Below, piece by piece: positions 5,314 to 53,095 of a stretch of 54,128 nucleotides of DNA (within the stretch, counting starts at the first letter, position 1; each line of letters begins with the position of its first letter). Source of the stretch: an uncultured Clostridia bacterium. GTDB lineage: Bacteria; Bacillota; Clostridia; TANB77; CAG-508. The notes beneath the pieces were generated by a model that saw only the letters and a program-made list of their open reading frames with translations, was not told where the DNA came from and did no database searches. The stretch spans positions 1-54,128 of the forward strand of contig CALXQG010000001.1 in the NCBI GenBank assembly GCA_944390515.1, written 5' to 3'. A program made the position numbers and the translations under genes.

Positions 5314-6315
5314 ATGTCAGATATCATTTTAAAAGATATTTTAGCAGAATATAATAAAAAGAAAATTAATGCTGAATATGAAGCCACAAAAAGGAAACAA
5401 GATTTATACAGTAAATATCCTAAACTACAAGAATTTGATGACAAATTAACTAGTCTTGCAATTTCTACAACAAAATCTTTAATAGATAATAATGATAAAA
5501 AATTATTGGATAAATTAAATGAAGATATTAAAAATTTAAAGAAGGAAAAAGAAAAATTACTAACTTCTCTTAATATACCAAAGGATTATTTCAGACCAAA
5601 ATATGAGTGTGAGTTATGTAAAGATACAGGTTATATTACAAATAATGATTATTCATCTTCTATGTGTACTTGCTTAAGACAAAAGATGTATGATGAATTA
5701 TACAATAAAGCTAATATATCAAATCTAAACACACAAAATTTTGATAATTTTACAGATTTGTTTTATTCTGACGAGAAGGATGAAGAAAAATACCATAGTA
5801 AACTTTCGCCCCGCGAAAATATAAATATAATAAAAAAAATATGTTTAAAATTTATTGATAATTTTGATAATAAAGACCAAAATAATTTATTATTTACTGG
5901 AAATACTGGTCTTGGAAAAACTTTTTTATCTAGTTGTATTGCAAATGAAATCCTAAAAAAAGGTAAAAATGTATTATATCAAACTGCTCCTGTAATGTTA
6001 GACACTATAATAGATTATAGATTTGGCAAAATTAAATCTTCTAATATTATAGATAGTATTTTAAATGTTGATTTATTAATTATTGATGATTTAGGAACAG
6101 AATGTATTAATAATTTGAAGTTTACCGAACTTTTTAATATTATAAATACTCGACTTTTAAATCAAAATAAAATAACTAAAACAATTATTTCTACTAATTT
6201 AAGTTTAAAAAATTTATATTCAAATTATGATGAAAGAATTGTTTCTCGTTTAGTTGGAAATTATGATATTTGTTACTTTTTTGGTGATGACATTCGTTTT
6301 AAAAAAAATAGATGA
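5314..6315 (+). CDS. dnaI: helicase loader DnaI/DnaC-type AAA+ ATPase
   Basis: It has an N-terminal Cys cluster CELCKDTGY...CTC, Walker A GNTGLGKTFL and Walker B LLIIDDLG. Confidence 0.8.
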   Translation: MSDIILKDILAEYNKKKINAEYEATKRKQDLYSKYPKLQEFDDKLTSLAISTTKSLIDNNDKKLLDKLNEDIKNLKKEKEKLLTSLNIPKDYFRPKYECELCKDTGYITNNDYSSSMCTCLRQKMYDELYNKANISNLNTQNFDNFTDLFYSDEKDEEKYHSKLSPRENINIIKKICLKFIDNFDNKDQNNLLFTGNTGLGKTFLSSCIANEILKKGKNVLYQTAPVMLDTIIDYRFGKIKSSNIIDSILNVDLLIIDDLGTECINNLKFTELFNIINTRLLNQNKITKTIISTNLSLKNLYSNYDERIVSRLVGNYDICYFFGDDIRFKKNR

Positions 6316-6347
6316 AGTACATTTTATTTGTACTTCATTTATTTTTC
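6312..6347. terminator. bidirectional intrinsic terminator between dnaI and gyrA
   Basis: A 9-bp stem ATGAAGTAC/GTACTTCAT with a 9-nt loop, followed by a T-rich tail. Confidence 0.6.
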
Positions 6348-6362
6348 ATTCTTTCTTTTTTA

Positions 6363-8801
6363 TTACTCTTGTTCTTTTTCTTCCATTGGTATTGTTTCTA
6401 TGCTAACAACTTTTCCTTCGTTTGTTCTCATAAGGGTAACTCCTTGAGTTGAACGTCCAAGAACACTAATATCTGCAACTTTTAGTCTAATAATTGTTCC
6501 TGTATCTGTTATAAGCATAACATCTTCATCGTCTGTAGCAATTCTTATTCCTACTAGATTTCCCGTTTTAGGTGTAACTTTATATGTTGTTACTCCTTTT
6601 CCTCCTCTAGTTTGTACTCTATATTCATCCAATTCTGTTCTTTTACCAAATCCATTCTCTGTTATCGCTAAAAGAGTTGCTTTGCTTCCTTGAATTATAG
6701 ATTCCATTCCTATTACAGAATCTCCACTATCTAATCTAATACCTATAACTCCTTGAGACACTCTTCCCATAGGTCTTACATCTTTTTCGTCAAATGTAAT
6801 GCACATTCCTTTATGAGTAACTAATACTACATTGTCTTCTCCATCTGTAAGTCTAACATCTATTAATTCGTCATCTTCTTTTAAAGTAATTCCAATTAAT
6901 CCAGTCTTTCTTACAGACATATATTCATTAAGTGCTGTTTTCTTTATAATTCCATTTTTCGTAGCCATTAATAAATATTTTCCATCCGCGAAGTTAGAAA
7001 TAGGAATGACTGCAGATATTTTTTCTCCTCCATCTAGCATTAATAAGTTTACAATTGCTGTTCCTTTAGCTGTTCTACCTGCTTCTGGAATTTCATATCC
7101 TCTCAATCTATATACTTTTCCTTTATTACTAAAGAATAATATTGTGTCGTGTGTTGATGCGGTAAATATTTGTTTAACAAAATCTTCTTCTCTTGTAGCA
7201 ATTCCTGTTATTCCCTTTCCTCCTCTTTTTTGACTCTTATATGTATCTATTGGCATTCTTTTTATGTATCCAAAATGAGTTAGAGCAACAACACATTGTT
7301 CTTCTTTAATTAAATCTTCTACGTCAAATTCTCCTTCTGCTGCTACAATTTTTGTTTTTCTCTCATCACCATATTTATCTTTAATCTCTAATAATTCTTC
7401 TTTTATTATGTCATATACAAGTCTATCACTAGCCAAAATTGCTCTTAAATGTTCTATTAATTTCATTAATTCATTATATTCTTCTTCTATTTTTTCTCTT
7501 TGTAATCCTGATAGAGTTTTTAATCTCATATCAAGTATAGCTTGTGCTTGTATATCAGAAAGTCCAAATCTTTCCATTAATCTTTCTTTTGCATCATCAT
7601 AAGAATTTCTAATTATTTCAATTACTTCATCTATGTTATCTAAAGCAATTTTTAATCCCTCTAATATATGAGCTCTAGCAAGTGCTTTATCCAAATCAAA
7701 TTGAGTTCTACGAAGAATTATAGTCTTTCTATGATCTATATAATATTCCAAGCATTGTCTTAATGTAAGTATTTTTGGTTGTCCATCAACTAATGCTAGC
7801 ATTATTACTCCAAAAGTATCTTGCATTTGAGTATATTTGAATAATTGGTTTAAGATAACTTGAGCATTGGCATCTCTTTTTAATTCTATAACAACTCTTA
7901 CTTTTTCTTCTCTGTCAGATTCATCTCTTACTTCTGAAATTCCCTCTATTCTTTTTTCTTTTACTAAATTTGCTATATTTTCAATTAATTTAGCTTTATT
8001 TACTTGATATGGTAAAGATCTAACAATGATTCTTTGTTTATTTCCACTCATTTCTTCTATTTCTGCTTCTGCTCTCATTGTTATTTTGCCTCTACCTGTT
8101 GTATATGCTTGTCTTATTCCTTCTTTACCTAATATTAGTCCTTCAGTTGGAAAATCTGGTCCTTTTATTATTGCCATTAACTCTTCATCTGTAACATTGT
8201 CTGAATCAATTATCTTAATTATTCCATTTATAACTTCTGTTAAATTATGTGGTGGAATATTTGTTGCCATACCTACAGCAATTCCTGATGAACCATTTAT
8301 TAAAAGTGTAGGAATTTTTGCTGGTAATACGGTTGGTTCTTGCAGTCTATCATCATAGTTTGGCATAAAATCAACAGTGTTTTTTTCTATATCTGTTAAC
8401 ATTGTCTCGGCTATTTTTGACATTCTTGCCTCTGTATACCTCATTGCGGCAGGAGAATCACCATCAACTGAACCGAAATTACCATGTCCATCTATTAATG
8501 GATATCTTAATGAGAAATCTTGTGCCATTCTAACCATTGCATCATAAACTGATGCATCTCCGTGTGGGTGGTATCTTCCTAAAACAGAACCTACAGTATT
8601 AGCACTTTTTCTATAAGGTTTGTCAGAAGTTATTCCATCTTCATACATAGCATATAAAATTCTTCTATGTACTGGTTTTAAACCATCTCTTACATCTGGA
8701 AGAGCACGAGAAACTATAACGCTCATTGCATAATCAATATAAGATGTTTTCATCTCTGTTTCAATATTTCTTTCAATAATTTTTCCTTCATTTTCTTCCA
8801 T
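6363..8801 (-). CDS. gyrA: DNA gyrase subunit A
   Basis: 812 aa. [30 protein letters not shown] and AAMRYTE are present, with a C-terminal beta-pinwheel region. Confidence 0.98.
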
Positions 8802-27323: not shown

Positions 27324-27476
27324 ACAAAATTTATCTATAAGTAGCTGATAAATATATATTCTAAAAATCATATTTTGTTTAAAAAAACAGAAAACTTTTT
27401 CATATTTTATTGACATCTTATTAATAATTTTATATTATTAATATGTTAATTTTTTACTAGAGAAGGAATGATGAGA

Positions 27477-28268
27477 ATGGGAAAGATTATATCTATTGCC
27501 AACCAAAAGGGTGGAGTTGGAAAGACTACAACATCAGTTAATTTAAGCACAATTTTAGCTAAAAAAGGGAAAAAAGTACTTATGATAGATGCTGATCCAC
27601 AAGGCAATGCATCAAGTGGAGTAGGAGTAGATAGAGAAGATATTGAACTATCTATTTATGATATATTAATAAATGATACACCAGTAGAGAATGTTGTCAT
27701 AAAGACAAAAATAAAAAATCTAGATATTTGTCCATCTAATATAAACCTTGCAGGAGCTGAAGTTGAACTTGTTTCAGTAATGTCTAGAGAACATAGATTA
27801 AAAGAAAAATTGGATTTGATTAAGGATGAATATGACTTTATAATAATTGATTGTCCACCATCTTTAGGATTAATTACACTAAATGCTTTTACGGCATCAG
27901 ACAGTGTATTAATTCCAGTACAATGTGAGTATTATGCATTAGAAGGATTAGGACAATTGTTAAACACTATAAGCCTTGTAAAGAAACATTTAAACAAGAA
28001 TATAGAAGTAGAAGGTGCACTTTTAACAATGTATGACATAAGAACAAATTTATCAAACCAAGTGGTTAAGGAAGTAAAGAAATATTTTAATGATAAAGTA
28101 TATAAAAACGTAATACCAAGAAATGTTAAATTAAGTGAGGCCCCAAGTTATGGTATGCCAATAAGTATATATGACCCAAGGTCAAAAGGAGCAAAAAGTT
28201 ATGAGAAGTTTGTTAAAGAATTTATAAAGAATAATGAAACTGAGACAAAAGGAAAACATGCAATATAA
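27477..28268 (+). CDS. soj: ParA/Soj chromosome partitioning ATPase
   Basis: MGKIISIANQKGGVGKTT is the deviant Walker A. ATG 27477 is preferred over 27468. Confidence 0.9.
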   Translation: MGKIISIANQKGGVGKTTTSVNLSTILAKKGKKVLMIDADPQGNASSGVGVDREDIELSIYDILINDTPVENVVIKTKIKNLDICPSNINLAGAEVELVSVMSREHRLKEKLDLIKDEYDFIIIDCPPSLGLITLNAFTASDSVLIPVQCEYYALEGLGQLLNTISLVKKHLNKNIEVEGALLTMYDIRTNLSNQVVKEVKKYFNDKVYKNVIPRNVKLSEAPSYGMPISIYDPRSKGAKSYEKFVKEFIKNNETETKGKHAI

Positions 28269-28390: not shown

Positions 28391-29242
28391 ATGAAAAAAA
28401 CAGGATTAGGAAAAGGATTAGATGCTTTATTTTCAGACCAATTATTATCAAATGATATTGTAGATGATAGTGCTACAGAGAAAATTCATAAAATAAAGGT
28501 TATAGAAATTGAACCAAATAGAGATCAACCTAGAAAGGTTTTTGATGAAGAAGCTCTAGACGAATTGGCTACATCTATAAAAACATATGGTGTTCTTCAA
28601 CCAATTATTGTTAATAAAAAAGATGATTATTATGAAATTGTTGCAGGAGAAAGACGTTGGAGAGCGGCAAAAAAGGCAGGGCTTTCTGAAATGCCATGTA
28701 TAGTAAAAGATGAACTAACAACAAGAACTAATAAGGAAATTGCATTAATAGAGAATTTACAAAGAGTTGACTTAAATCCTGTAGATAAAGCCTTGGGCCT
28801 AAAAGAATTAATTGATGATTATGGAATGACCCAAAAAGAATTAGCTGATTCAATAGGACTAAGTAGGAGTAATATAGCAAATTCTGTAAGAATTTTAAAT
28901 TTAACACCTAAAGTTTTAGAGTTAGCTCAAGATGGAAAATTAACTGAAGGTCATTGTAGGAACTTAGTAATGATAGAAGACCCAGAAAAACAATATAAAG
29001 CTGCATTATCTATAATAGAAAAAGGAGAATCTGTTAGAGATATAGAAAGAAAAGTAAAAAACAAGAAAAATGCAATGGCAGCAGATCCAAGATTTGAAGC
29101 TATATATAAGGATATAGAAGATTCTTTTCAAGGTTTTTTTGGAACAAAAGTAAAATTAGATGCTAAAAAGAAATCAGGAAAGATAATTATACAATATTCT
29201 TCGTATGATGATTTAGAAAGAATATTAGGACTTATAAAATAA
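28391..29242 (+). CDS. spo0J: ParB/Spo0J
   Basis: The ParB box GERRWRAAK and an HTH region are present. Confidence 0.9.
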   Translation: MKKTGLGKGLDALFSDQLLSNDIVDDSATEKIHKIKVIEIEPNRDQPRKVFDEEALDELATSIKTYGVLQPIIVNKKDDYYEIVAGERRWRAAKKAGLSEMPCIVKDELTTRTNKEIALIENLQRVDLNPVDKALGLKELIDDYGMTQKELADSIGLSRSNIANSVRILNLTPKVLELAQDGKLTEGHCRNLVMIEDPEKQYKAALSIIEKGESVRDIERKVKNKKNAMAADPRFEAIYKDIEDSFQGFFGTKVKLDAKKKSGKIIIQYSSYDDLERILGLIK

Positions 29243-29296
29243 AAAATGATAATATATATTGAAATATTATAAAAAATTCGTAAAGGAGTGTATAAA

Positions 29297-29803
29297 ATGG
29301 ACAAGATAATGGATTTCTTAAATACAGAAATATTCCTTTTGATGTTATTAGGACTTATAATTATATTATTTATACTATATATATCAAGTATTGCTAAATT
29401 GAATAAATTAAGAAAGAATTATTCTACATTTATGAAAAAATTAGGAAATGGCAATAATATTGATGAAATACTGCAAGATTATATAAAAAGAGTAGGTATT
29501 GTAGAGGCAAAAAATGAAGAAATAATATCATATTGTAAAGGTATAGAAGATAATATAAAAATATGTAATCAAAAAATGGGATTAGTCAGATATAATGCAT
29601 TTAAGGATACAGGGAGTGATTTGAGTTTTGCATTAGCAATATTAGATGATTATAACAATGGAATTGTATTAAATGGAATATATGCTAGAGATTCTTCGAA
29701 TATTTACGCTAAGCCAGTGGAAAAAGGAGAATCAAAGTATATATTATCAAATGAAGAAAAAGAAGCAATAAATAAAGCTATTAATAATATTAGAACTAAT
29801 TAA
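29297..29803 (+). CDS. DUF4446-family protein
   Basis: N-terminal TM segment, in the conserved position after spo0J in Clostridia. The start is ATG 29297, after AAAGGAG. Confidence 0.7.
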   Translation: MDKIMDFLNTEIFLLMLLGLIIILFILYISSIAKLNKLRKNYSTFMKKLGNGNNIDEILQDYIKRVGIVEAKNEEIISYCKGIEDNIKICNQKMGLVRYNAFKDTGSDLSFALAILDDYNNGIVLNGIYARDSSNIYAKPVEKGESKYILSNEEKEAINKAINNIRTN

Positions 29804-29922: not shown

Positions 29923-30014
<92 letters not shown>

Positions 30015-30067
30015 AATTAATTAAATAGAAGTTAGAAGAAAAGCAAATCTAACTTCTATAATTATAT

Positions 30068-30158
30068 GGAGGCTTACCCAAGTGGTTGAAGGGGACAGTT
30101 TGCTAAACTGTTAGGGTTCGTAAGGGCCGCGAGGGTTCAAATCCCTCAGCTTCCGCCA
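30068..30158 (+). tRNA. tRNA-Ser (anticodon GCU)
   Basis: GGAGGCTTACCCAAGTGG...; anticodon loop TTGCTAA; long variable arm; T-arm AGGGTTCAAATCCCT; encoded CCA. Confidence 0.95.
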
Positions 30159-30164
30159 AAATGG

Positions 30165-30200
30165 TATAAAGAAATTGTTTCTTTATATCTTTTTTATTTT
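30165..30200 (+). terminator. intrinsic terminator after the tRNA-Ser pair
   Basis: Stem TATAAAGAAA/TTTCTTTATA with a 3-nt loop, then TCTTTTTTATTTT. Confidence 0.75.
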
Positions 30201-32394
30201 GGTTGAATGTCAATAGTTGGAGTTTATCTCCCCCAACTAATATTATAGAACCGATATTGAAAGATGAAAAAAAGAATATGAATAATAATATAAAATTTAA
30301 ATAACTGTATTTTGTAGGTAGTATATAAGTACAGTCATTTTTATAATTAGGGAGTTATAATTAAAAATAAAAAAATAGAAAAAAATATATAAAAATAATT
30401 AAAAAAATTTTTTAAAATTAAAAAACATTAATTGAATAAAAATATCATATAAAAAAGTTTATACAAATTAATTTTAAAAATATTAAATAAAAAATGAAAA
30501 AATAAAGAATTAATTATTTATTTACATTAAATAAATAATTAAAACAAAAAAATTAAAATAAATCATTAAAAGGAAACAATTAAATTGAAAATATAAATTA
30601 AATAAATAATTATAGAATAGAAAAGTAAGAAGGAATAAAAAATATAAAAAACGAAATGTAAAAAAGTGTTTGTCATTTTGATATATTATTGCTTAAGAGA
30701 ATATATTAGTAAATAAAATCTGAGAAAGTTCGTCTTTTAGCCAAAAATAAACTTTTTAAAAAGTTTTAGAAACAAGAAGATAATAACAAAGTAAACAAAA
30801 AGAGCAGCAATACAAATTTAAACTTAACTTTATGTTTACGAGAAAACAAGTGATAATAGATTTTATAATTTTTTTAAAAATTCACTAGTCCGATAGCATA
30901 AAAGTTTGAAAGAACAGAAAATTTTATAAATAATTATTAATGTTTAATGCTTTTTAAGTTAACGTTTAATTATTTATTATAAAGCAAAAGTATTAGAAAT
31001 TTTTTCAAATTAATTATAAAATAGAAGGCACTATTCTTTTTGACAAATTCTAAAGAGCTTTTTATAAGAAAGAAATAACAATTAAAGTTTTGTCATTTTG
31101 AAAGTATAAATAATTTTCATATGAAGAAGTATGTCAAGAGAAAAAAGAGAAGTAATAAGTTTTAATAGCTTTTATTAAAAATAATTATTAAATAAAAGTA
31201 GCGTTTATAAAAATTAATTTAATAAAAAATATAAATAGTTATTTATTTTAAATTTAATAAACAAATAAAACAAATTATAAAAAAATAAATATAAAAATAA
31301 AATGATAATAAATCAAAAAACAAAAATAAATAATTAATAATAAAAAAACATAAAATAAAACTTAATAATAAATTTAAAAGAATAATATTAATAAAATTTA
31401 TAATTTATTTTTATAAAATATAAATTTAAAAATAAAAAATTTATTATGAGTTTATTAAAAAAATAAATAAAAAGAATCAAAAAAAGTAAAAACTATTTTA
31501 AAATTTCTTTAAATTATAATTTTAAAGAAAGCAATCCTTTAGGTAAAGAATAAAATATTGTACTAAGAAAAAAATCTTATATAAAATAAAATAAAGGAAA
31601 AAAAGTTGTTGCTAAATATAATGATTTGAAATATGAAATACTAATATAAAATTGACAAAAAGACTAATAAAATAATAATATAGAAATAATTGTCCAAAAT
31701 AGCCGTATAATATGAATGATAACAAATAATCATATGTAGACCTAAAAAGATTTAAAAAATTAAAATTATATATTATATATTTTGTGTTTTGAATTATGTA
31801 ATTATTCGGATACAAGAGATCACGAGAATTAATAAAATATTATATAAAATTCGTTACAGATCAACATAAAACAAAAAGAAAATCAGCTTATTAATTAATA
31901 ATAGAAAAAGAGAATAAACTATTTTAAGGCAAGAAAATATCGATAAGAATAAAATTGGCAAAATGACATAAAAATGGAGGGCAGCGAATTTTGACTTGAT
32001 TTTAAAGAAAAAATAATTTGTTTTTTTCTAAAAGATAAAATTTGAAATAGGAACATTCGTGTAGCAATACCGCAATTAAAAAAATTATATATCTTAAAAG
32101 ATTATAATGCAAAAAGTAAAATATTTAAAATAAAAATAAATAAAAAAATATTAAAGTATAAAAATAAAAAATATTAAAAATGAAAATCAAATAGGACATA
32201 AAAATTACAAAAAATTACAAGATATTTTTTGAAATTAAAATTATTGATTAAAAATATTAATTAATAAAATCAAATAAAAAGAATTTATATAGATTAATTA
32301 AAACTTAAAACAAATAATATAAAAATAATTAATATAATAAATAATATAAAATACTATTTAATGAAATAAAACAAATATTTAAAATATATAATAT
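30201..32394. other. 2.2-kb ORF-poor, extremely A+T-rich, A-skewed (plus strand) non-coding stretch
   Basis: Only one ORF of 60 aa or more is tracked here (31612-31815, a T-rich-strand artefact type). Whole 60-nt lines carry 1-5 G/C; for example 30361-30420 has 41 A, 18 T, 1 G and 0 C. Confidence 0.9.
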
Positions 32395-32427
32395 AAAAAA
32401 TCAAAGATTTTAAATCTTTGATTTTTT
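32395..32427. terminator. bidirectional terminator after the 1441-aa gene
   Basis: AAAAAA, stem TCAAAGAT/ATCTTTGA, then TTTTTT. It lies 13 nt past the stop codon. Confidence 0.7.
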
Positions 32428-32439
32428 ATATTAGTTAAA

Positions 32440-35400
32440 TTATTTTTTAATTTCCTTCTTAATTAAATTATTTTTTAAATTTTCTTTTCCTATAGCATTT
32501 TTTTCTGATTGTTTTTTCTTTAAATTGTCTTTTGCAACTGTCATTAATAATTTAATTCTATTTGTTTGATTTGCCTCACTAGCACCAGGATCATAATCTA
32601 TTGCAGATATATTTGCCTCAGGAAATTCATTTCTAATTGTTTTTATTACACCTTTTCCAACAACATGGTTTGGTAAGCAAGCAAATGGCTGAACACAGGC
32701 TATATTTGGTATTCCATTTTCTATATATTCAATCATTTCTGCGGTCAAGAACCAACCTTCACCTGTTTGATTTCCTATTGACAAAATATTTTTTACTTTA
32801 TCTTCTAATTCCCAAATATCACAAGGTTGCAAATATCCTTTTTTTGAATTAGCTAATGCTATTCTAGAATCTTTTTCTAAAATATCAATTAATTTAATTG
32901 CGGTTTTAAATAATTTTGCTTTCATTTTGTCCGTTTTAATTAGTTGATTAAACGTAATTTTATGTGTCGCAATAAATTTAATAAATCCCATAAAATCAGG
33001 AAGTACAACTTCGGCGCCTTCTTCTTCTAATTTATTAGCAATAAAATTATTTCCAAATGGGTGATATTTTATTAGTACTTCACCTACAATTCCTACTTTT
33101 GGTTTTTCTACAGATGTGTCTAATTCAATTTTTTCAAAGTCATTTACCATATCATAAATACTTTGTTTGAATTGTTTCATTGTAGATTTTTCTAATAATT
33201 TTTTGCATTTTTCAAGCCATTCATCAAATAATTTTTGAGTCTCACCTTTGTTTATTTCATAAGCTCTATTTTTTGTAAGCATTTTTTGTAAAAGGTCTGC
33301 ATATACTACCATTTTTAGTAATCTTTCAATTAAAGGTAAAGTTATTTTAAACCCTGGCATTTTTTCCATTCCAACAACATTAAATGATATTACCGGAATA
33401 TTTTCAAATCCTGCATCTTTTAGAGCTTTTCTAATAAATCCTATATAGTTTGTAGCTCTACATCCGCCACCAGTCTGAGACATGATCAATGCTGTTTTGT
33501 TTAAATCATATTTTCCTGATTGTAGTGCTTCAATCATTTGTCCTGTAACTAGAATAGATGGATAACAAGCATCATTATTAACATATTTTAATCCTGTTTC
33601 TACTGTGTGCTCAGTACACTTTCTTAACAGCTCAACTTTATATCCTGATTGTCTTACAGCTGCTTCAAGTAGTTCAAAGTGAATTGGAGCCATTTGAGGA
33701 ATTAAGATTGTATAATCATCTTTCATTTCCTTTGTAAATATCTTTTTATTTACCTCATAATCGCCACTACCTTTTAGTTCTTCTTTGTTAGCTAATCTCT
33801 TGTTCATACTTGCAAGTAATGAACGAATACGAATTCTTACAGCGCCTAAATTATTTATTTCATCAATTTTTATTAATGTGTACATTTTTCCATAACTTGT
33901 TAATATTTCTTCTACTTGATCTGTTGTAACTGCATCTACACCGCAACCAAATGAATTTAATTGTACTAATTCTAGATTGTCGTGTTTTCCAACAAAATCT
34001 GCTGCAGCATAGAGCCTTGCATGAAACACCCATTGATCGACAACTCTTATTGGTCTTTTTACTTCTGTTTGGTTAGAAATGCTATCTTCTGTAAGTACAC
34101 ACAAGCCTAAGCTTGTAATCAACGTGTCTATACCATGATTTACTTCTGGGTCTACATGATATGGACGACCAGCTAAGACAATTCCTTTTAAATTATTTTT
34201 TTCTATGTATTCAACAGTTTCTTTTCCTTTAGCACGAATATCTGCTTTGCATTTTTGATATTCTTCTTCAGCTTTTTGTGCAGCATGTAATAATTCCTTT
34301 TTAGTGAAATTATATTCTGCAAATTCAGGCAATTCTAATATTGTTTTTGCCAAGTTTTTAGTGTCAAAAGGTAAAAATGGATTTAAGAATTTTATATTTT
34401 TTTCTTTTAATTCTTCCACATTATTTTTTAATACTTCTGAATATGAAATTACGATAGGGCAGTTATAGTGATTATCAGCTTTTTCATATTCTTTTCTTGA
34501 ATATGGCATACAAGGATAAAAAATTGTCTTGACTCCTTGATTAATTAATCCAATAATATGTCCGTGTGATAACTTTGCAGGGAAACATACTGATTCAGAT
34601 GGCATTGATTCCATACCTTTTTCATATGTTTTTCTGTTACTTTTTTCAGAAAGTACAACTCTGAATCCCAAATTAGTTAAAAAAGTAAACCAGAAAGGAT
34701 AATCTTCATACATGTTAAGTACTCTAGGAATTCCTATTATTCCTCTTGGAGCATCTTTTTCATCCAATGGTGTATAACCGAAAATTCTCTCATATTTATA
34801 TTTTACTAAATTAGGAAGCTCAGCTTTTTCTCCAATTATTCCAGCCCCTTTTTCACAACGATTTCCAGAAATATGTTTTGTACCATTGCTAAATTTATTT
34901 ATCGTAAGTAAACAATGGTTTTCACAACCATTACAACGAATATGAGATGTTTCTATTTCTAATTTATCTAAATCTTCTAATCTAGTTAAATGACTTCTAT
35001 ATTCCATATCAAGATTTGCTTCATATTGTTCCTTTGCAAGTAATGCGACACCATAAGCTCCCATAAGTCCTGATATATCTGGTCTTACAACATTTCTTCC
35101 TACTATTAATTCAAAGGCTCGAAGAACAGCATCATTATAAAAGGTTCCACCTTGCACAACTATGTGAGCACCTAACTTCTTTACATCTCTTACTTTCATA
35201 ACTTTTTGAATAGCATTTTTAATTACAGAATAAGAAAGCCCTGCAGAGATGTCTCCTACTGAATATCCTTCTTTTTGAGCTTGTTTAATTTTAGAATTCA
35301 TAAAAACTGTACATCTTGAACCTAAATCAACAGGTCTCCTTGCTTCTACTGCAGCCTTCACAAAATCCTGAATTGATAGATTTAAGCTTTTAGCAAAAGT

Positions 35401-36765
35401 TTCTATGAAAGAACCACAACCAGAAGAACAAGCTTCATTAAGCATAATATTATCTATTGCACCGTTTTTCATTTTTATATATTTCATGTCCTGTCCGCCT
35501 ATATCAACGATACTTGTAACATTTGGCATGAATTTTTTTGCAGCAGTATAATGTGCAATTGTTTCTATCTCATTCAAATCTACATTTAATGCAGTTTGTA
35601 TTAATTTTTCTCCATAACCTGTTACCCCACTGTATCTAATAATAGCTTTTTCTGGTAATTCTGCATATAATTTTTTAAGCATTTTTATAACACTTTGTAA
35701 AGGATTTCCTTCATTGCTTCCATAAAGAGAGTATAATAATCTACCTTCATTATCAATTAATGTTAATTTTGTTGTAGTAGAGCCTACATCTAAACCAACA
35801 TAACAATCTCCTTCAAAAGTTTTTAAATCTGCTTTTTCTACTGTATCTTTATCATGTCTCTTTTTAAATTCTTCATAGTCAGCATTTATTGAAAATAAAG
35901 GAGCGAGAGGATTAGAAGTATCATCGTGTGATACCCTTAAAACCTCAATTTTACTTTTTAATTTTTCAACACTAATTGGTTTTGCCTCTTCAATTGAATC
36001 CAAAGCTGCTCCTTTTGCTACTAGCAAATGAGCTTCTTCTGGTATAATTATTTCTTTGTCTTTTAAATGAAGAGTTTCTATAAATCTATTTCTTAATTCT
36101 GATAAATAATTAAGAGGACCTCCTAAAAATGCTACATTTCCTCTAATGGGTCTACCACAAGCTAAACCAGATATTGTTTGATTAACAACTGCCTGAAAAA
36201 TAGATACGGCAATATCCTCTTTAGCAGCACCTTCATTTAATAATGGTTGTATATCAGTTTTGGCAAAAACTCCACAGCGAGAAGCTATTGGATAAATCAT
36301 TTTATAATTTTTTGCAAGTTCATTAAGACCTGTTGGGTCTGTATTTAAAAGAGATGCCATTTGGTCAATAAAAGCACCTGTACCACCTGCGCATGTACCA
36401 TTCATACGTTGTTCGATTGATTTATCAAAATATATAATTTTTGCATCTTCTCCACCAAGTTCTATAACAACATCTGTTTTTGGAATATATTTTTCTACAG
36501 CCCTTTTACAAGAAACAACTTCCTGAATAAAAGGCAAGTCTAAGAATTTAGATGCAGACATTGCTCCAGAGCCTGTTAATGCTATTGTGAATTCAAAATC
36601 TGGATATTTTTCAGCTAAAGTTTCAAGTACATTACAAACTGTATTTTTTGTATCTGAAAAATGTCTTTGATAATCTTTATAAATTGTATTTAATTGGTCA
36701 TCCATTACAACTATTTTAACAGTTGTTGATCCAACATCTAAGCCCACATGTAATAATTTGTTCAT
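32440..36765 (-). CDS. acyl-CoA dehydratase activase-related fusion protein (two BadF/BadG/BcrA/BcrD-type ATPase modules plus a dehydratase-like C-terminal region)
   Basis: VGLDVGSTTVKIV and VGLDVGSTTTKLT are the two ASKHA phosphate-1 motifs. A Cys cluster CNGCENHC is present. The start is ATG 36765, after AAAGGAAG. Confidence 0.9.
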   Translation of the reverse strand: MNKLLHVGLDVGSTTVKIVVMDDQLNTIYKDYQRHFSDTKNTVCNVLETLAEKYPDFEFTIALTGSGAMSASKFLDLPFIQEVVSCKRAVEKYIPKTDVVIELGGEDAKIIYFDKSIEQRMNGTCAGGTGAFIDQMASLLNTDPTGLNELAKNYKMIYPIASRCGVFAKTDIQPLLNEGAAKEDIAVSIFQAVVNQTISGLACGRPIRGNVAFLGGPLNYLSELRNRFIETLHLKDKEIIIPEEAHLLVAKGAALDSIEEAKPISVEKLKSKIEVLRVSHDDTSNPLAPLFSINADYEEFKKRHDKDTVEKADLKTFEGDCYVGLDVGSTTTKLTLIDNEGRLLYSLYGSNEGNPLQSVIKMLKKLYAELPEKAIIRYSGVTGYGEKLIQTALNVDLNEIETIAHYTAAKKFMPNVTSIVDIGGQDMKYIKMKNGAIDNIMLNEACSSGCGSFIETFAKSLNLSIQDFVKAAVEARRPVDLGSRCTVFMNSKIKQAQKEGYSVGDISAGLSYSVIKNAIQKVMKVRDVKKLGAHIVVQGGTFYNDAVLRAFELIVGRNVVRPDISGLMGAYGVALLAKEQYEANLDMEYRSHLTRLEDLDKLEIETSHIRCNGCENHCLLTINKFSNGTKHISGNRCEKGAGIIGEKAELPNLVKYKYERIFGYTPLDEKDAPRGIIGIPRVLNMYEDYPFWFTFLTNLGFRVVLSEKSNRKTYEKGMESMPSESVCFPAKLSHGHIIGLINQGVKTIFYPCMPYSRKEYEKADNHYNCPIVISYSEVLKNNVEELKEKNIKFLNPFLPFDTKNLAKTILELPEFAEYNFTKKELLHAAQKAEEEYQKCKADIRAKGKETVEYIEKNNLKGIVLAGRPYHVDPEVNHGIDTLITSLGLCVLTEDSISNQTEVKRPIRVVDQWVFHARLYAAADFVGKHDNLELVQLNSFGCGVDAVTTDQVEEILTSYGKMYTLIKIDEINNLGAVRIRIRSLLASMNKRLANKEELKGSGDYEVNKKIFTKEMKDDYTILIPQMAPIHFELLEAAVRQSGYKVELLRKCTEHTVETGLKYVNNDACYPSILVTGQMIEALQSGKYDLNKTALIMSQTGGGCRATNYIGFIRKALKDAGFENIPVISFNVVGMEKMPGFKITLPLIERLLKMVVYADLLQKMLTKNRAYEINKGETQKLFDEWLEKCKKLLEKSTMKQFKQSIYDMVNDFEKIELDTSVEKPKVGIVGEVLIKYHPFGNNFIANKLEEEGAEVVLPDFMGFIKFIATHKITFNQLIKTDKMKAKLFKTAIKLIDILEKDSRIALANSKKGYLQPCDIWELEDKVKNILSIGNQTGEGWFLTAEMIEYIENGIPNIACVQPFACLPNHVVGKGVIKTIRNEFPEANISAIDYDPGASEANQTNRIKLLMTVAKDNLKKKQSEKNAIGKENLKNNLIKKEIKK

Positions 36766-36873
36766 TAAATATCTTCCTTTCATAATCCCCTATATATTAT
36801 GTTTAAGTCTAATAATACATTCTTAATTGTATACGGAAATTAGAAATTTGTCAAATGGAAAAAATGTGCAAAA

Positions 36874-36882
36874 TGTGGATAA
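36874..36882. promoter_or_regulatory. isolated perfect DnaA box
   Basis: TGTGGATAA in the divergent spacer between the activase-like gene and the gerM-like gene. Confidence 0.4.
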
Positions 36883-41689: not shown

Positions 41690-42166
41690 TTAACGGTGAT
41701 AGGTTTCATTATTTGAAATTTTAAAACCTCTAAATAATTGTTCTAACAAAAATACTCGAATTAATTGATGTGGAAAAGTCATTTTAGAAAAGCAAATCAA
41801 TTCATTTGAATTGTGGATAACTTTTTCAGATAACCCCAAAGATCCACCAATAATAAAGGAAATAGTACTGTTACTTAATTTTAGATTTTCCAATTTTTTA
41901 GAAAAATCTTCGGATGAATATTGTTTTCCTTTTAAATCTAAAGAAATTGTGTAGCTATTATTTATATAGCCAAGAATTTTATTTCCTTCTATATTTTTTA
42001 TATTAGTAGAAACTTTATCATTCAAGCTATTAGGTATTGGTTCATCTGGTATTTCTATAATATCAAGTTTACAGTATTTAGAAAGTCTTTTAGAATATTC
42101 CGCAATAGCATCTTTTAAGTAAGTTTCTTTTATTTTCCCTACACAAATTATATTTATATGTACCAT
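41690..42166 (-). CDS. rlmH: 23S rRNA (pseudouridine1915-N3)-methyltransferase RlmH
   Basis: 158 aa, SPOUT type. MVHINIICVGKIKETYLKDAIAEYSKRL and IGGSLGLS are present. Confidence 0.9.
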   Translation of the reverse strand: MVHINIICVGKIKETYLKDAIAEYSKRLSKYCKLDIIEIPDEPIPNSLNDKVSTNIKNIEGNKILGYINNSYTISLDLKGKQYSSEDFSKKLENLKLSNSTISFIIGGSLGLSEKVIHNSNELICFSKMTFPHQLIRVFLLEQLFRGFKISNNETYHR

Positions 42167-49474: not shown

Positions 49475-50920
49475 AATTAATTCCGTCCCTTCCTAAGTAC
49501 AAATCTAGTTGAAAAAATTAAAATTTATTTTAACAAAAATAAATTTTAATAAATTAATTATAACATCTATGTCAAGGAAAATAAAATATTAAGAAATATT
49601 ATAATAATTATTTTAAATAATTTTTGAATTATTATTATAGTACTAAATAATTAAGAAAAAAATTATTATTATTAAAATAAATAAAAAAACAAATAAATAA
49701 ATTGCCGAAAATAATTTAATCTAAAATATTAATTATTATTTTAAATAATAATTAATAAATAAAAAACAATAATAAATAAAAAAATAAAAATAAAAAATTT
49801 TTTATTAAAAATCATAAATAAATTAATTACCAATAACCAAGTATAAAAATAAAAATAAAAATTAACATAAAATCTTAAACAAATGTAAAAAGAAAAACAA
49901 AAAACAATTAACATAAAGACAAGGAATTTTAAAATGTAATTACCTTTTATAGAAAACAAGGTAAAAAAATAATTTGTCAAAAAGAAGAAAACATATAATA
50001 AATAGTTAATCAAAAAATAGAGCAGAACAAAAAGTAAAAACTATAAATTATTTTATATAATGCAAAATTATATTAAAACAAATATATATAATTTAGAATA
50101 ATTGAAAAAAACTGAACGGAATATTGAAAGATAGGAGTTGTAATAAGAAAAACAATCTTACTTATCAATGGTAATAAAATATGACAGTAATATATGAAGT
50201 GTGAAATTTCTATAAAGAAAGAAAAATATTGTACAAGGAGAAAAATTATAGATTTGTCAAAAAGTAATTACAAAAGTATCAAAAAGACAAATAAAAGCAG
50301 TAGTAAATTATAAAAGAGTTATATAAGCAATGAAATATAAAAATTAGAAACAAATCGGTATACATAAATAATAAAACTAATGAAAGACAACTAATATTAA
50401 AAAATTAAAATTTATATATTATAATGTGGAAGTAATATAAAAGTTAGATATTAAAAACATTATTATTTATCAAAAAAATATAATTAATCAAAAATAAATA
50501 TAAAATAAATATGAATATTATAAAAATAAATCATTAAATAAAAAAATATATTTTTAAATAAACTTTTTACAATGAAAAATAATAAATAAATTTAAAAAGT
50601 AAAAAATAAAATGATAATAAAAATAAAAAATATTTTTGATAAAAAACATATATAAAAATAGAATAGTTAAAAATAAAATTATAAAATAATATTTATTTTA
50701 TAAAAATTAAAAAATTAAAAATACAATAATAAAAAGATGAGGGATTTGATAAGAAAATAAAGTGATAAGTATTATATAAATTTTCCTGTGATCTCCATCT
50801 GTATAATTTATACTTATCCTAATAATAACTTACATCTAAAATATTATGAATACTATCGGTTTACCAGTGTATTCTTATATAAGAAAGTAAATTTAAATAT
50901 AAAGAAATAAAAAATCAAAA
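49475..50920. other. 1.4-kb ORF-poor, extremely A+T-rich, A-skewed non-coding stretch
   Basis: Only one tracked ORF lies here (49741-50013, F/I/L/Y-rich, T-rich-strand artefact type). For example, 50521-50580 contains 4 G/C. Confidence 0.9.
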
Positions 50921-50955
50921 AACAAACTAATGTGATTTTTTCACATTAGTTTGTT
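50921..50955. terminator. terminator hairpin overlapping the stop of the DUF2207-like gene
   Basis: A 15-bp perfect stem AACAAACTAATGTGA/TCACATTAGTTTGTT with a T5 loop, flanked by A/T runs. Confidence 0.7.
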
Positions 50956-52579: not shown

Positions 52580-53095
52580 ATGCATGAAGAATATATGAAA
52601 GAAGCTTTGAAAGAAGCAAAGAAAGCCTATAAAAAATTGGAGATACCTGTTGGAGCTGTAATCGTAAAAGATGGAATAGTAATAGCCAAAGCCCATAATA
52701 TAAAAGAAGAAAAAAAGGATACAACAAAGCATGCTGAAATATTAGCAATACAAAGAGCTAGCAAAAAGTTAGGTACATGGAGGCTAAATGACTGTGAGAT
52801 GTATGTTACACTTGAACCATGCCCTATGTGTGCAGGTGCTATTATACAGTCTAGACTAAAAAAAGTAAATATTGGGACAATGGATGAAAAAACGGGAGCA
52901 TGTGGTTCTGTTCTTAATTTATTACAAGACTATAAATTTAATCACATAGTAGAGGTAGAAAAAGGTATATTAAAAGAGGAGTGCGAAAAAATATTAAAAG
53001 ATTTTTTTGTAATGCTTAGACAATATAAAAAAGAAAAAATGGAGACGTATCGAAGTGGTCATAACGAGGCTGACTCGAAATCAGTTGGTCAGTGA
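52580..53095 (+). CDS. tadA: tRNA-specific adenosine deaminase TadA
   Basis: The HAE and PCPMCAG zinc motifs are present. The 3' end of the ORF runs 55 nt into tRNA-Ser(CGA). Confidence 0.9.
   Translation: MHEEYMKEALKEAKKAYKKLEIPVGAVIVKDGIVIAKAHNIKEEKKDTTKHAEILAIQRASKKLGTWRLNDCEMYVTLEPCPMCAGAIIQSRLKKVNIGTMDEKTGACGSVLNLLQDYKFNHIVEVEKGILKEECEKILKDFFVMLRQYKKEKMETYRSGHNEADSKSVGQ

Follow-up and report, generated by a model that had tools for sequence, protein, structure and literature searches.

Why does a bacterium with a small genome keep two kilobases of DNA that appear to encode nothing? To our knowledge, bacterial genomes of 1-2 Mb almost never retain kilobases of noncoding DNA. However, positions 30201-32394 of the window, the whole stretch of 54,128 nt analyzed here from an uncultured Clostridia bacterium, form the largest ORF-free stretch of this 75-contig, 1.08-Mb metagenome-assembled genome (MAG) in a gap ranking of the whole assembly.

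Results

Between the terminator of a tRNA-Ser pair and the hairpin of an activase gene, the block contains no ORF of at least 100 aa (Table 1). The sole ORF above 60 aa is the F/Y/I/L-rich one of 67 aa on the minus strand (31612-31815) that the first-pass annotation had described. The activase gene had been given as 1441 aa, a length obtained by counting from its second ATG; the full length is 1447 aa. The terminator of the tRNA pair went unflagged in a terminator scan because its stem has fewer than three G-C pairs. The extreme A+T content and the A skew that first drew attention to the block are borne out: in 200-nt windows, GC drops to 6-7% with an AT skew of +0.25 to +0.35, and a recount of positions 30361-30420 gives the same 41 A, 18 T, and 1 G. 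The A-skewed spacers of the block have 6-8% GC overall and alternate with three more complex islands, which lie where they had been placed. Downstream of the terminators of two further tRNA operons (C8:27837-27877 and C17:19234-19274), the 41-nt element of the first island recurs with 93-95% identity, and one copy is also present in a relative. The previously noticed motif TTGTCATTTTGA is real and has two plus-strand copies, whose starts, 30670 and 31090, are each shifted by +1 from the positions first given. Its core, TGTCATTTTG, occurs at 30671, at 31091, and on the minus strand at 31959, the last being the third copy claimed earlier; these are the only three copies in 54 kb compared to 0.33 expected, and three or more were found in 0 of 100 shuffles. 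Elsewhere in the genome, there is just one further long pure-A/T run (C46:4744-4816); it lies inside a 645-aa ORF and was set aside as coding low-complexity sequence and not an array. The same structure as in the block is found in independent MAGs and in a complete relative (G024; single contig, 1.70 Mb); the block is not the assembly artefact that had been considered.

Table 1. Features of the block, of its origin-proximal surroundings, and of a second locus (positions in the window)
Feature	Position	Strand	Remarks
oriC region	17337..20245		DnaA-box clusters flank dnaA; cumulative GC-skew minimum
dnaA	18833-20224	minus	Pfam; inside oriC region
parA	27468-28268	+	Pfam; upstream of tRNA-Ser pair
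parB	28391-29242	+	Pfam; GERRWRA motif and HTH kept
DUF4446	29288-29803	+	Pfam; directly upstream of tRNA-Ser pair
tRNA-Ser(TGA) and tRNA-Ser(GCT)	29923..30158	+	Left border of slot; ARAGORN, Rfam
Intrinsic terminator of tRNA pair	30165..30200	+	AAAGAAA-TTG-TTTCTTT, then T run; read from sequence
41-nt element AATAGTTGGAGTTTATCTCCCCCAACTAATATTATAGAACC	30212..30252	+	Most of the first island
Spacer S1	30361..30650		7.2% GC; 64% A, 29% T on + strand
Unit U1	30666..31101	-	Inverted relative to relatives' units
U1 box e TCAAAATGACAAACAC	30666-30681	minus
U1 box 3 CGTAAACATAAAG	30828-30840	minus
U1 box 2 TATCGGACTAGTG	30883-30895	minus
U1 box 1 CGTTAACTTAAAAAG	30950-30964	minus
U1 box a TTTGTCAAAAAG	31036-31047	minus
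U1 e-type box TCAAAATGACAAAAC	31087-31101	minus
Spacer S2	31200..31560		7.8% GC; 67-nt pure A/T run 31381-31447
Unit U2	31652..31973	+	Boxes degenerate
U2 a/e box TTGACAAAAAGACTAA	31652-31667	+
U2 box 1 TGTAGACCTAAAAAG	31735-31749	+
U2 box 2 ATTCGGATACAAG	31804-31816	+
U2 box 3 GATCAACATAAAAC	31859-31872	+
U2 box e GGCAAAATGACATAAAA	31957-31973	+
Spacer S3	32110..32394		7.4% GC
Hairpin terminator	32395..32427		Right border of slot; inverted repeat; common to activase gene
BcrAD_BadFG/DUF2229 activase gene, 1447 aa	32440-36783	minus	Pfam
Second locus	49493..50945	+	Same build; second largest ORF-free gap in assembly; GC 13.6%
U3 box a	49973-49984		Second locus
U3 box 1	50033-50047		Second locus
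U3 box 2 GAACGGAATATTGAAAG	50114-50130		Second locus
U3 box 3	50185-50199		Second locus; degenerate
U3b box a	50253-50264		Second locus; truncated unit
U3b box e	50279-50297		Second locus; truncated unit
U3b ATCGG/TATACATAAA	50354-50369		Second locus; truncated unit

The block contains two units built from five boxes that are conserved across species; the motif noticed earlier is one of these boxes. The first-pass annotation had missed this, as well as the makeup of the block as a tandem module array and the second locus in the window. The order in units is TTGTCAAAAAG (box a), GTWAAC(TAA) (box 1), after 62 or 71 nt CGGA(W)TA (box 2), after 53 or 54 nt GTAWACATAA (box 3), and finally AAAWGACAAA (box e). 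In U1, the spacings of 71 and 53 nt are the values of the family, and U1 is the single match to CGGA-N(38-62)-GTAWACATAA in the whole 1.08-Mb genome. In U2, the coordinates put boxes 1 and 2 at 71 nt from each other and ACATAA at +57 from CGGA, the canonical value. Only two units, of opposite orientation, are present in the block, and its tandem character is therefore degenerate. The second locus has spacers of 5-8% GC (49520-49880 and 50450-50720), and three of the four TTGTCAAAAAGW sites of the whole genome fall in the two loci.

In genomes of the same genus, the same slot is occupied by arrays of 0-8 units, in which a spacer of 0-7% GC is paired with an island of 15-28% GC. A unit measures ~350-450 bp (~700 bp in one relative), and inter-unit filler measures ~300 bp with 0-8% GC. 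As a practical matter, such arrays break short-read assemblies and the unit numbers in MAGs are, therefore, lower bounds; many of the relatives' contigs end 1-2 kb from the flanking gene. G024 has seven units with a period of ~750 bp, all on the leading strand; the array occupies 865.6-871.3 kb of this genome, with dnaA at 854.5 kb and the minimum of the GC skew at 850 kb. No other ORF-free stretch of G024 is as large as the array (5294 bp, 10% GC; median GC of ORF-free gaps of 100-600 bp, 22.8%), and of the 24 pure-A/T runs in this genome that reach 50 nt, 17 are found in the array. Like G024, G010 (at least seven units) and G011 (eight units, period ~1100 bp) carry head-to-tail tandem repeats at one locus, i.e., satellites.

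Between species, the islands could not be aligned by blastn or nhmmer, although the protein encoded by the flanking gene is 94% identical; similarly, the tRNA-Ser pair is 81-90% identical in relatives, whereas the array is not alignable. nhmmer profiles made from units of G024 or G011 detected no units in other species, and only searches with box patterns work. The search that we used to collect units allowed 38-62 nt between CGGA and GTAWACATAA. Among 29 nonredundant units from the loci of about ten genomes, this distance is 53 or 54 nt in 26, and box 1 is located 61-63 or 70-72 nt upstream of CGGA in 25. Box 1 was absent from the search pattern, and neither box 1 nor the 53/54-nt spacing was dictated by it; the identity values of boxes 2 and 3 are partly circular because both boxes were used to collect units. 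A collection-wide scan with the box pattern was discarded, the matches listed being mostly chance matches. Linker identity between genomes is 0.432 compared to 0.417 for shuffled linkers; thus, the linkers are close to saturation. Moreover, linkers are rich in A where the unit is co-oriented with replication and rich in T where it is inverted (U1 and the units of G019), indicating that they track the local mutation bias. The G/C-bearing boxes persist under this AT pressure. Selection would bear on only ~50 nt of each unit and on how these are spaced.

These patterns also bear on the idea that the array is a neutral or selfish satellite, i.e., a tandem repeat that persists by duplication and slippage and whose boxes serve self-propagation or are frozen accidents. 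Unit number and sequence turn over fast between close species, in G024 two units were recently duplicated together as a higher-order block, as judged by sequence and alignment, and the spacers are low-complexity, slippage-type sequence. One relative (G007) has filler only, with 3.7 kb of ultra-AT DNA in the slot and no recognizable boxes, and long noncoding satellites are known in a few prokaryotes (PMC6749651). Nevertheless, we consider this idea unlikely. The boxes and spacings, including those not imposed by the search, outlast complete randomization of the linkers in the loci of about ten genomes and under strong AT pressure, and the array locus keeps its place in genomes of only 1.3-1.7 Mb in at least three genera.

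The slot is close to the origin of replication. The block lies ~10 kb to the right of oriC, as defined by dnaA, DnaA-box clusters, and the GC-skew minimum, and is preceded by the gene order rsmG-parA-parB-DUF4446 and the two tRNA-Ser genes. Genomes of three genera have ultra-AT tracts at a distance of 7-18 kb from dnaA, and pure-A/T runs of at least 70 nt are present in 118 of 201 genomes of the family and in 40 of its 50 genera. The first-pass annotation had raised curved A-tract DNA with a nucleoid or origin-domain role as one of three explanations, among which it made no choice. The origin-domain part of this proposal fits best, given the distance to dnaA and oriC and a position kept in three genera; phased curvature is not general, as only one spacer of five, S2, has a 10.5-bp A-tract period (z = 4.8). 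A replication terminus, first suspected because genes converge on the block, was rejected with dnaA, DnaA boxes, and the GC-skew minimum only 10 kb away.

Several lines of evidence argue against the eroded gene, island, or rRNA operon that had been proposed earlier. First, of ten stop-free segments compared with Pfam, nine had no match and one had a subthreshold match (E 0.035; 14.4 bits vs. a cutoff of 27); six-frame translations of the islands had no tblastn match elsewhere in the genome, and no pseudogene remnants were found by Pfam and translated searches. Second, only the tRNAs match Rfam, and nothing in the block does. Third, there is no integrase nearby, no tRNA-derived direct repeat at the block, and no plasmid similarity where this was looked for. 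Fourth, substitutions between paralogous units carry no period-3 signal (p = 0.17 and 0.67), and different genera share this architecture. An origin from decayed genes, an rRNA operon, or an element inserted at the tRNAs would account for the site after tRNA genes, which is typical of integrated elements, and for the coding-strand-like purine excess of the islands; on balance, we regard it as highly improbable.

Small proteins were considered as well. ORFs are not conserved between units, and on the T-rich strand a small ORF (M[FY]T...LYSA) is not kept open. An ATG in the reverse complement of box 3 starts 29-aa ORFs in only some G024 units and ORFs of 5-18 aa in other G024 units and in the window. 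Because no small ORF is conserved in every unit, an array of type I toxin-antitoxin or small-protein genes was rejected.

Another reading of box (a) is as a -35 element (TTGTCA/TTGACA), followed in some units by a weak -10 at a distance of 16-18 nt, and so transcription of the units or a role of the boxes in RNA is conceivable. The array would then consist of small transcription units with box (a) as a sigma-A-type -35, each giving rise to an unstructured A-rich noncoding RNA, and boxes 1-3 as binding motifs for protein or RNA; alternatively, what counts would be the promoters as such, e.g., through transcription-driven supercoiling near oriC. Consistent with this scenario, box (a) starts with TTGTCA, the region's best promoter-like site is in U2 (TTGACA-N16/18-AATAAT/TAATAT), a minus-strand TTGACA-N16-AATTAT is present in U1, and units and A-richness are co-oriented with the tRNA genes and with replication in most genomes. 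However, promoter-like sites are at chance level (35 vs. 28.5 +/- 5.8 in shuffled sequence; 99 vs. 89 +/- 9 in another scan), the -10 is not at a fixed distance from box (a), and there are no intrinsic terminators inside units. Folding z-scores of 0.49 and 0.00 indicate no excess RNA structure, and RNAalifold gave no consensus pairs on either strand (energy 0.0) and no covariation. Finally, inverted units turn U-rich while their boxes are kept, which would be odd if RNA makeup mattered. The unstructured A/U-rich RNAs of the first-pass annotation, therefore, stay among the rival explanations, but as a doubtful one. A structured noncoding RNA of any Rfam family was rejected because covariance models matched nothing but tRNAs and no conserved structure was found.

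Turning to the identity of the boxes, the DnaA box (TTATCCACA, at most one mismatch) is missing from 30201-32394, from 49493-50945, and from the G024 array, and box 2 lacks the TGTG part of the DnaA box; accordingly, neither the loci of the window nor the G024 array contain the several DnaA boxes of a DnaA-box cluster or datA-like element. Two perfect DnaA boxes occupy the position of box 2 in the module that three more distant species have beside the same gene. They are flanked by a GTAAAC-type box and, in two of these species, on the other side by a GTARACATAA box, and the modules also carry a AAAATGACAAA box.

For the parS palindrome TGTTNCACGTGAAACA, the best match in the window has two mismatches and lies outside both loci, at 52804; no parS above control level was found in G024. 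With up to one mismatch allowed, 35 of 38 genomes of the genus and 185 of 201 of the family lack a canonical parS, and one near-consensus site in two relatives, in the variable linker of jag, is missing here. With no 16-bp parS palindrome or close variant in the loci, the block is not a parS cluster; the absence of parS is family-wide and not associated with ultra-AT tracts. The array could still be a replacement centromere, i.e., a ParB-loading, SMC-loading, or pole-anchoring site in a family without canonical parS. It lies immediately downstream of parA-parB, ParB looks intact, canonical parS is missing as described, and no alternative conserved palindrome was found near oriC. On the other hand, ParB keeps what we take to be parS-type residues at the ParB/Noc specificity positions (SRS...ANS...GH), the boxes are nonpalindromic and only loosely like a parS half-site, and ultra-AT tracts are about equally common in genomes with parS (8 of 16) and without (110 of 185). 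We, therefore, consider such a centromere quite improbable.

Other candidates were rejected. Boxes 1 and 3 resemble what we take to be single XerD-type arms (TTATGTWWACT); there is no second arm at 6-8 bp, genome scans with the dif pattern are at control level, and a candidate dif-like palindrome in contig C24 is not conserved. A Spo0A operator was rejected because box (a) reads TGTCAAA, whereas the genome's own tandem operators read TGTCGAA-N3-TGTCGTA (expected TGNCGAA). On inspection, none of the consensus sequences of sigma-H, E, F, G, K, and ECF promoters seemed to fit. A CRISPR array was rejected because there are no short identical direct repeats (24-48 nt), the linkers are of local composition and not foreign-like, and no cas gene is present among the scanned ORFs of the window. 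For integron attC sites, the boxes misfit the core consensus (RYYYAAC...GTTRRRY) by reading, there is no hairpin potential, and no integrase is nearby.

Discussion

Here, we describe noncoding modules of defined anatomy that occupy a syntenic, origin-proximal slot and in which boxes and spacings are conserved against randomized linkers. With somewhat less than even confidence, we favor an interpretation in which such modules form a lineage-wide array, putatively selected as protein-binding DNA that functions in origin biology, and in which the block is a short copy of it that has partly degenerated. We suggest that arrays grow and shrink through tandem duplication and loss, so that orthology between species would quickly be lost. 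One or more sequence-specific proteins may recognize the boxes in double-stranded DNA, and the array may serve as a protein-loading or titration platform for origin-region transactions, candidates being the control of replication initiation or origin organization. The CGGA box would stand in for the DnaA box in this genus. The spacers would be unconstrained DNA, driven near 0% GC by AT-biased, strand-asymmetric mutation and slippage.

A more far-reaching scenario, which we consider rather unlikely, is that the array is a new origin-organizing cis element of the whole family. The distances from box 1 to box 3 of ~104, 116, and 125 bp are close to 10, 11, and 12 helical turns. A protein, or DnaA or ParB in a noncanonical mode, might assemble on helically phased box triplets and in that way replace the missing parS or DnaA-box clusters in initiation, segregation, or polar anchoring at sporulation, and the spacers of ~0% GC might be easily melted or protein-coated insulators.

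Regardless of mechanism, a family of abundant uncultured gut Clostridia retains such a block at one place, by the origin and parAB. In a lineage without the near-universal parS, this pattern points to a putative DNA-protein assembly in origin biology. If found, the binding factor could reveal a new way in which replication initiation or the segregation of origins is controlled, perhaps in connection with sporulation. The spacers would also offer a rare view of unconstrained DNA under the mutation bias of the lineage, at ~0-5% GC and with an excess of A on the leading strand.

Several known systems resemble the array in part. The tandem sRNA genes and type I toxin-antitoxin repeats of the LhrC and Ldr/Sib types are likewise fast-evolving tandem intergenic units of a few hundred bp; by contrast, the array has no conserved small ORF, terminators, or RNA structure. 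In the ori/rep elements of yeast mitochondria, which are present in several copies per genome, G/C-bearing blocks lie in AT-rich spacers. The array shares with them short conserved G/C blocks at fixed distances and spacers of >90% A+T; however, organism and sequences are unrelated and the analogy is one of architecture only. Chromosomal parS clusters resemble the array in that cis sites are repeated next to parAB, close to oriC, and multiply by tandem duplication, but the array lacks parS palindromes, its boxes are asymmetric, and its period is 750-1100 bp and not tens of bp. Long noncoding satellite families have been reported only in Leptospira interrogans and Methanocella conradii, in which they are dispersed (Subirana and Messeguer 2019, PMC6749651). 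The array is similarly tandem, noncoding, of long period, and born by local duplication; it differs in occupying one syntenic origin-proximal locus family-wide, in units that have diverged to saturation save for five spaced boxes, and in near-pure A/T spacers.

The closest functional analogues are probably datA of Escherichia coli and the oriC-proximal DnaA-box clusters of Bacillus subtilis. datA is a noncoding, origin-proximal cluster of short protein-binding boxes that acts in cis or by titration. Compared to both systems, the array has units without a DnaA box (at most one mismatch), a long-period tandem arrangement, spacers of 0-8% GC, and a hypervariable unit number. With the B. subtilis clusters (Okumura et al. 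2012, PMC3245932), the likeness lies in noncoding clusters of short protein-binding boxes close to the origin, and it extends to perfect DnaA boxes in the homologous module of the distant species.

Results

The ultra-AT block exemplifies a lineage-wide array. The first-pass annotation had described a gene desert beside the tRNA-Ser pair, extreme in A+T and A-skewed, and this description holds: no ORF of at least 100 aa lies between the tRNAs and the 1447-aa activase gene, the longest ORF in the block is the F/Y/I/L-rich one of 67 aa on the T-rich strand, GC falls to 6-7% with an AT skew of +0.25 to +0.35 in 200-nt windows, and recounting 30361-30420 gave the same 41 A, 18 T and 1 G. Spacers S1-S3 have 7.2-7.8% GC, 59-64% A and 29-33% T. 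The window is the entire contig C1 of a MAG of 75 contigs (1.08 Mb, 70% complete), and no ORF-free gap of this assembly is larger than the block. The second largest, 17 kb away, has the same build and boxes.

In relatives, the syntenic slot between tRNAs and activase gene is filled by an array of the same kind with a variable number of units. Comparable A-rich ultra-AT tracts are present in 24/24 sampled same-genus genomes, frequently as matches at regular intervals. G024, a single-contig genome of 1,697,300 bp, has seven units between the same tRNA pair and gene, repeating every ~750 bp; each consists of ~300 bp at 0-2% GC and ~450 bp at 15-20% GC. Of the 24 pure-A/T runs in this genome that reach 50 nt or more, 17 fall in the array, which is also the largest ORF-free stretch there (5294 bp, 10% GC), exceeding the rRNA pieces; the median GC of ORF-free gaps of 100-600 bp is 22.8%. 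G010 has at least seven units, located to either side of the tRNAs, G011 has eight with a period of ~1100 bp, and unit numbers differ among the closest relatives (flanking gene 94% identical at the protein level); many relatives' contigs break off within the array, and counts from MAGs may be too low. In G007, the slot is 3.7 kb at 3-10% GC without islands. In the family, 118/201 genomes, from 40/50 genera, contain pure-A/T runs of 70 nt or more. Such runs can also be coding: a 645-aa ORF of G000, the MAG containing the window (C46:3801-5738, minus strand), carries one of 73 nt in extremely Lys/Asn/Ile-rich low-complexity sequence.

Features of the window and of related loci
Feature	Position	Strand	Description
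dnaA	18833-20224	minus	Pfam
tRNA-Ser pair	29923-30014 and 30068-30158		left neighbours of block
41-nt element	30212-30252		most of island 1
41-nt element	C8:27837-27877	minus	G000
41-nt element	C17:19234-19274	minus	G000
U1	30666-31101	minus	inverted relative to relatives' units; full box set, canonical 71-nt and 53-nt spacings
U2	31652-31973	plus	degenerate boxes GTAGAC, TTCGGATA, ATCAACATAA; spacings still canonical
1447-aa activase gene	32440-36783	minus	right neighbour of block
Second locus	49493-50945		1453 bp, 13.6% GC; between PP-loop ATPase gene and DUF2207 gene
U3	second locus		spacings stretched to 83 and 70 nt
U3b	second locus		truncated unit
G024 array	865.6-871.3 kb		dnaA at 854.5 kb, GC-skew minimum at 850 kb

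The units share ordered boxes. Islands of relatives gave no blastn alignment, whereas the tRNAs align at 75-91% identity, and nhmmer profiles built from one species' units had no match in another. The same box order is nevertheless seen in alignments within G024, G011 and G010 and in a cross-species table.

Order and spacing of boxes in a unit
Box	Sequence	Distance to next box
a	TTGTCAAAAAG	about 70-95 nt
1	GTWAAC(TAA), preceded by ATAA	61-63 or 70-72 nt
2	CGGA(W)TA	53 or 54 nt
3	GTAWACATAA	100-160 nt
e	AAAAGACAAA, TTAGACAAA or AAATGACAAA	

The set comprises 29 non-redundant units from the loci of about ten genomes. It was defined by boxes 2 and 3, which makes the conservation values of these two boxes themselves partly circular. 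The distance between them is 53 or 54 nt in 26 units, within a search window of 38-62 nt. In 25/29 units, box 1, which was outside the search pattern, keeps to one or the other of its two distances. Linker identity is 0.615 within genomes and 0.432 between genomes, versus 0.417 for shuffled sequences; A prevails in linkers of units that point in the direction of replication, and T in those of inverted units. Thus, linkers are sequence-free, track local mutation bias and are constrained in length alone. By contrast, boxes persist and hold most G/C of the units. We read the boxes and their spacing as being under purifying selection; that the arrays are neutral or selfish satellite DNA of variable copy number is, in our view, unlikely. 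The distances between boxes 1 and 3 (about 104, 116 and 125 bp) are near whole numbers of helical turns; because distance classes are so few, helical phasing of the two boxes is only suggestive.

The motif previously noted in the block is box (e). Its core, TGTCATTTTG, is indeed present three times, at 30671, 31091 and 31959 (minus strand), with starts that had been placed one base too early. These are all copies in the 54-kb window, versus 0.33 expected, and three were reached in 0/100 shuffles. The reverse complement, CAAAATGACAA, matches CAAAAAGACAAA, which is invariant across G011 units. Genome-wide, three of four TTGTCAAAAAGW sites lie in the block and second locus, and the two-box pattern has one match in 1.08 Mb, inside the block. 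Of the three islands originally distinguished, two are box-bearing units (U1 and U2), but the first is mostly a separate 41-nt element (AATAGTTGGAGTTTATCT[C/A]CC..AACTAATATTATAGAACC) that itself contains an inverted repeat. In G000, it lies immediately 3' of intrinsic terminators in three different tRNA operons, and the relative G023 carries a 92% copy. It could be a processing signal, a termination signal or a promoter for downstream sequence.

Several earlier suggestions found little or no support. This applies to an eroded gene: 9/10 stop-free segments lack a Pfam match, that of the tenth stays below threshold (E 0.035, 14.4 bits, cut-off 27), and searches with the translated islands found no counterpart elsewhere in the genome. 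Neither ORF conservation between units nor a period-3 signal in differences between paralogous units (p = 0.17 and 0.67) was found. As for an RNA, Rfam detected only the tRNAs, folding z-scores were 0.49 and 0.00, and RNAalifold predicted zero pairs on either strand. Transcription from box (a), the reverse complement of which with one more A reads CTNCTTTTTTGNCAA, is unlikely: promoter-like sites occur at chance level, and no terminators were found inside units. Intrinsic curvature is not a general property, since a 10.5-bp A-tract period occurs in 1/5 spacers.

The block is close to oriC. Directly upstream of the tRNAs are rsmG, parA, parB and a DUF4446 gene (Pfam), and the neighbourhood includes the sporulation genes spoIIR, one with a Germane domain and two with Gate domains. 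DnaA-box clusters in the window occur around dnaA only, where cumulative GC skew is also at its minimum; therefore, the block lies ~10 kb right of oriC. A terminus, first suggested by converging genes, was accordingly dropped. The array of G024 is 10-16 kb from the origin markers, and dnaA is separated from ultra-AT tracts by 7-18 kb in genomes belonging to three genera. Among the earlier suggestions, an origin-domain role is the best fit, given this distance and the conserved position. Isolated perfect DnaA boxes (TGTGGATAA) outside oriC are at 36874, in intergenic sequence that precedes the activase gene and includes its promoter region, and at 41812. Near the GC-skew maximum (terminus) of G024, 1688084-1689614 and 5841-6938 are ORF-free stretches of 1.1-1.5 kb at ~18% GC.

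Discussion

Fixed box spacing over sequence-free linkers, independence of strand composition and the lack of RNA or coding signals are best fitted by a DNA-protein assembly. We tentatively suggest that the array may be such an assembly in origin biology, with a putative binding factor.

A centromere role is attractive because parS is missing although ParB looks intact. Canonical parS (TGTTNCACGTGAAACA, at most one mismatch) is missing in 35/38 genus and 185/201 family genomes, including the complete one, while parA and parB are intact in the window and ParB has its GERRWRA motif, HTH, C-terminal dimerisation domain and putative specificity residues. However, parS absence is not tied to ultra-AT tracts (8/16 versus 110/185) and the boxes are not palindromic, making this role improbable. 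Near-consensus parS occurs in two relatives within the variable linker of the jag gene.

Known sites do not account for the boxes. A parS reading fails in the block and in G024, a DnaA-box scan rules out DnaA-box clusters for units of this genus, and the boxes match neither Spo0A operators of the type used by this genome nor a full Xer site. Elsewhere in G000, dif-like arms (ATTTAACATAA-N8-TTATGTTAAAT) at C24:6147-6176 form a perfect inverted repeat of 11 nt; this repeat is probably not dif because three relatives do not conserve it.

A further lead is given by three more distant species (L093, L095 and L096; flanking gene 79-80% identical). The match of box 2 to the DnaA-box complement is limited to GGA(W)TAA, which makes box 2 an implausible high-affinity DnaA site. 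In the three species, a module adjoining the same gene, in the last 300 nt before and directly downstream of it, carries a pair of perfect DnaA boxes (TGTGGATAA) separated by 12 nt. They follow a GTAAAC-type box, precede a GTARACATAA box in 2/3 and have a AAAATGACAAA box ~110 nt upstream; in the modules further upstream, convergent DnaA-like pairs are retained in weaker form. By this order, the DnaA boxes hold the place of box 2, and we take these modules to be a DnaA-box version of the array. Together with the conserved origin-proximal position, they point to origin biology, in which the suggested DNA-protein assembly would contribute to control of initiation or to organisation and segregation of the origin.
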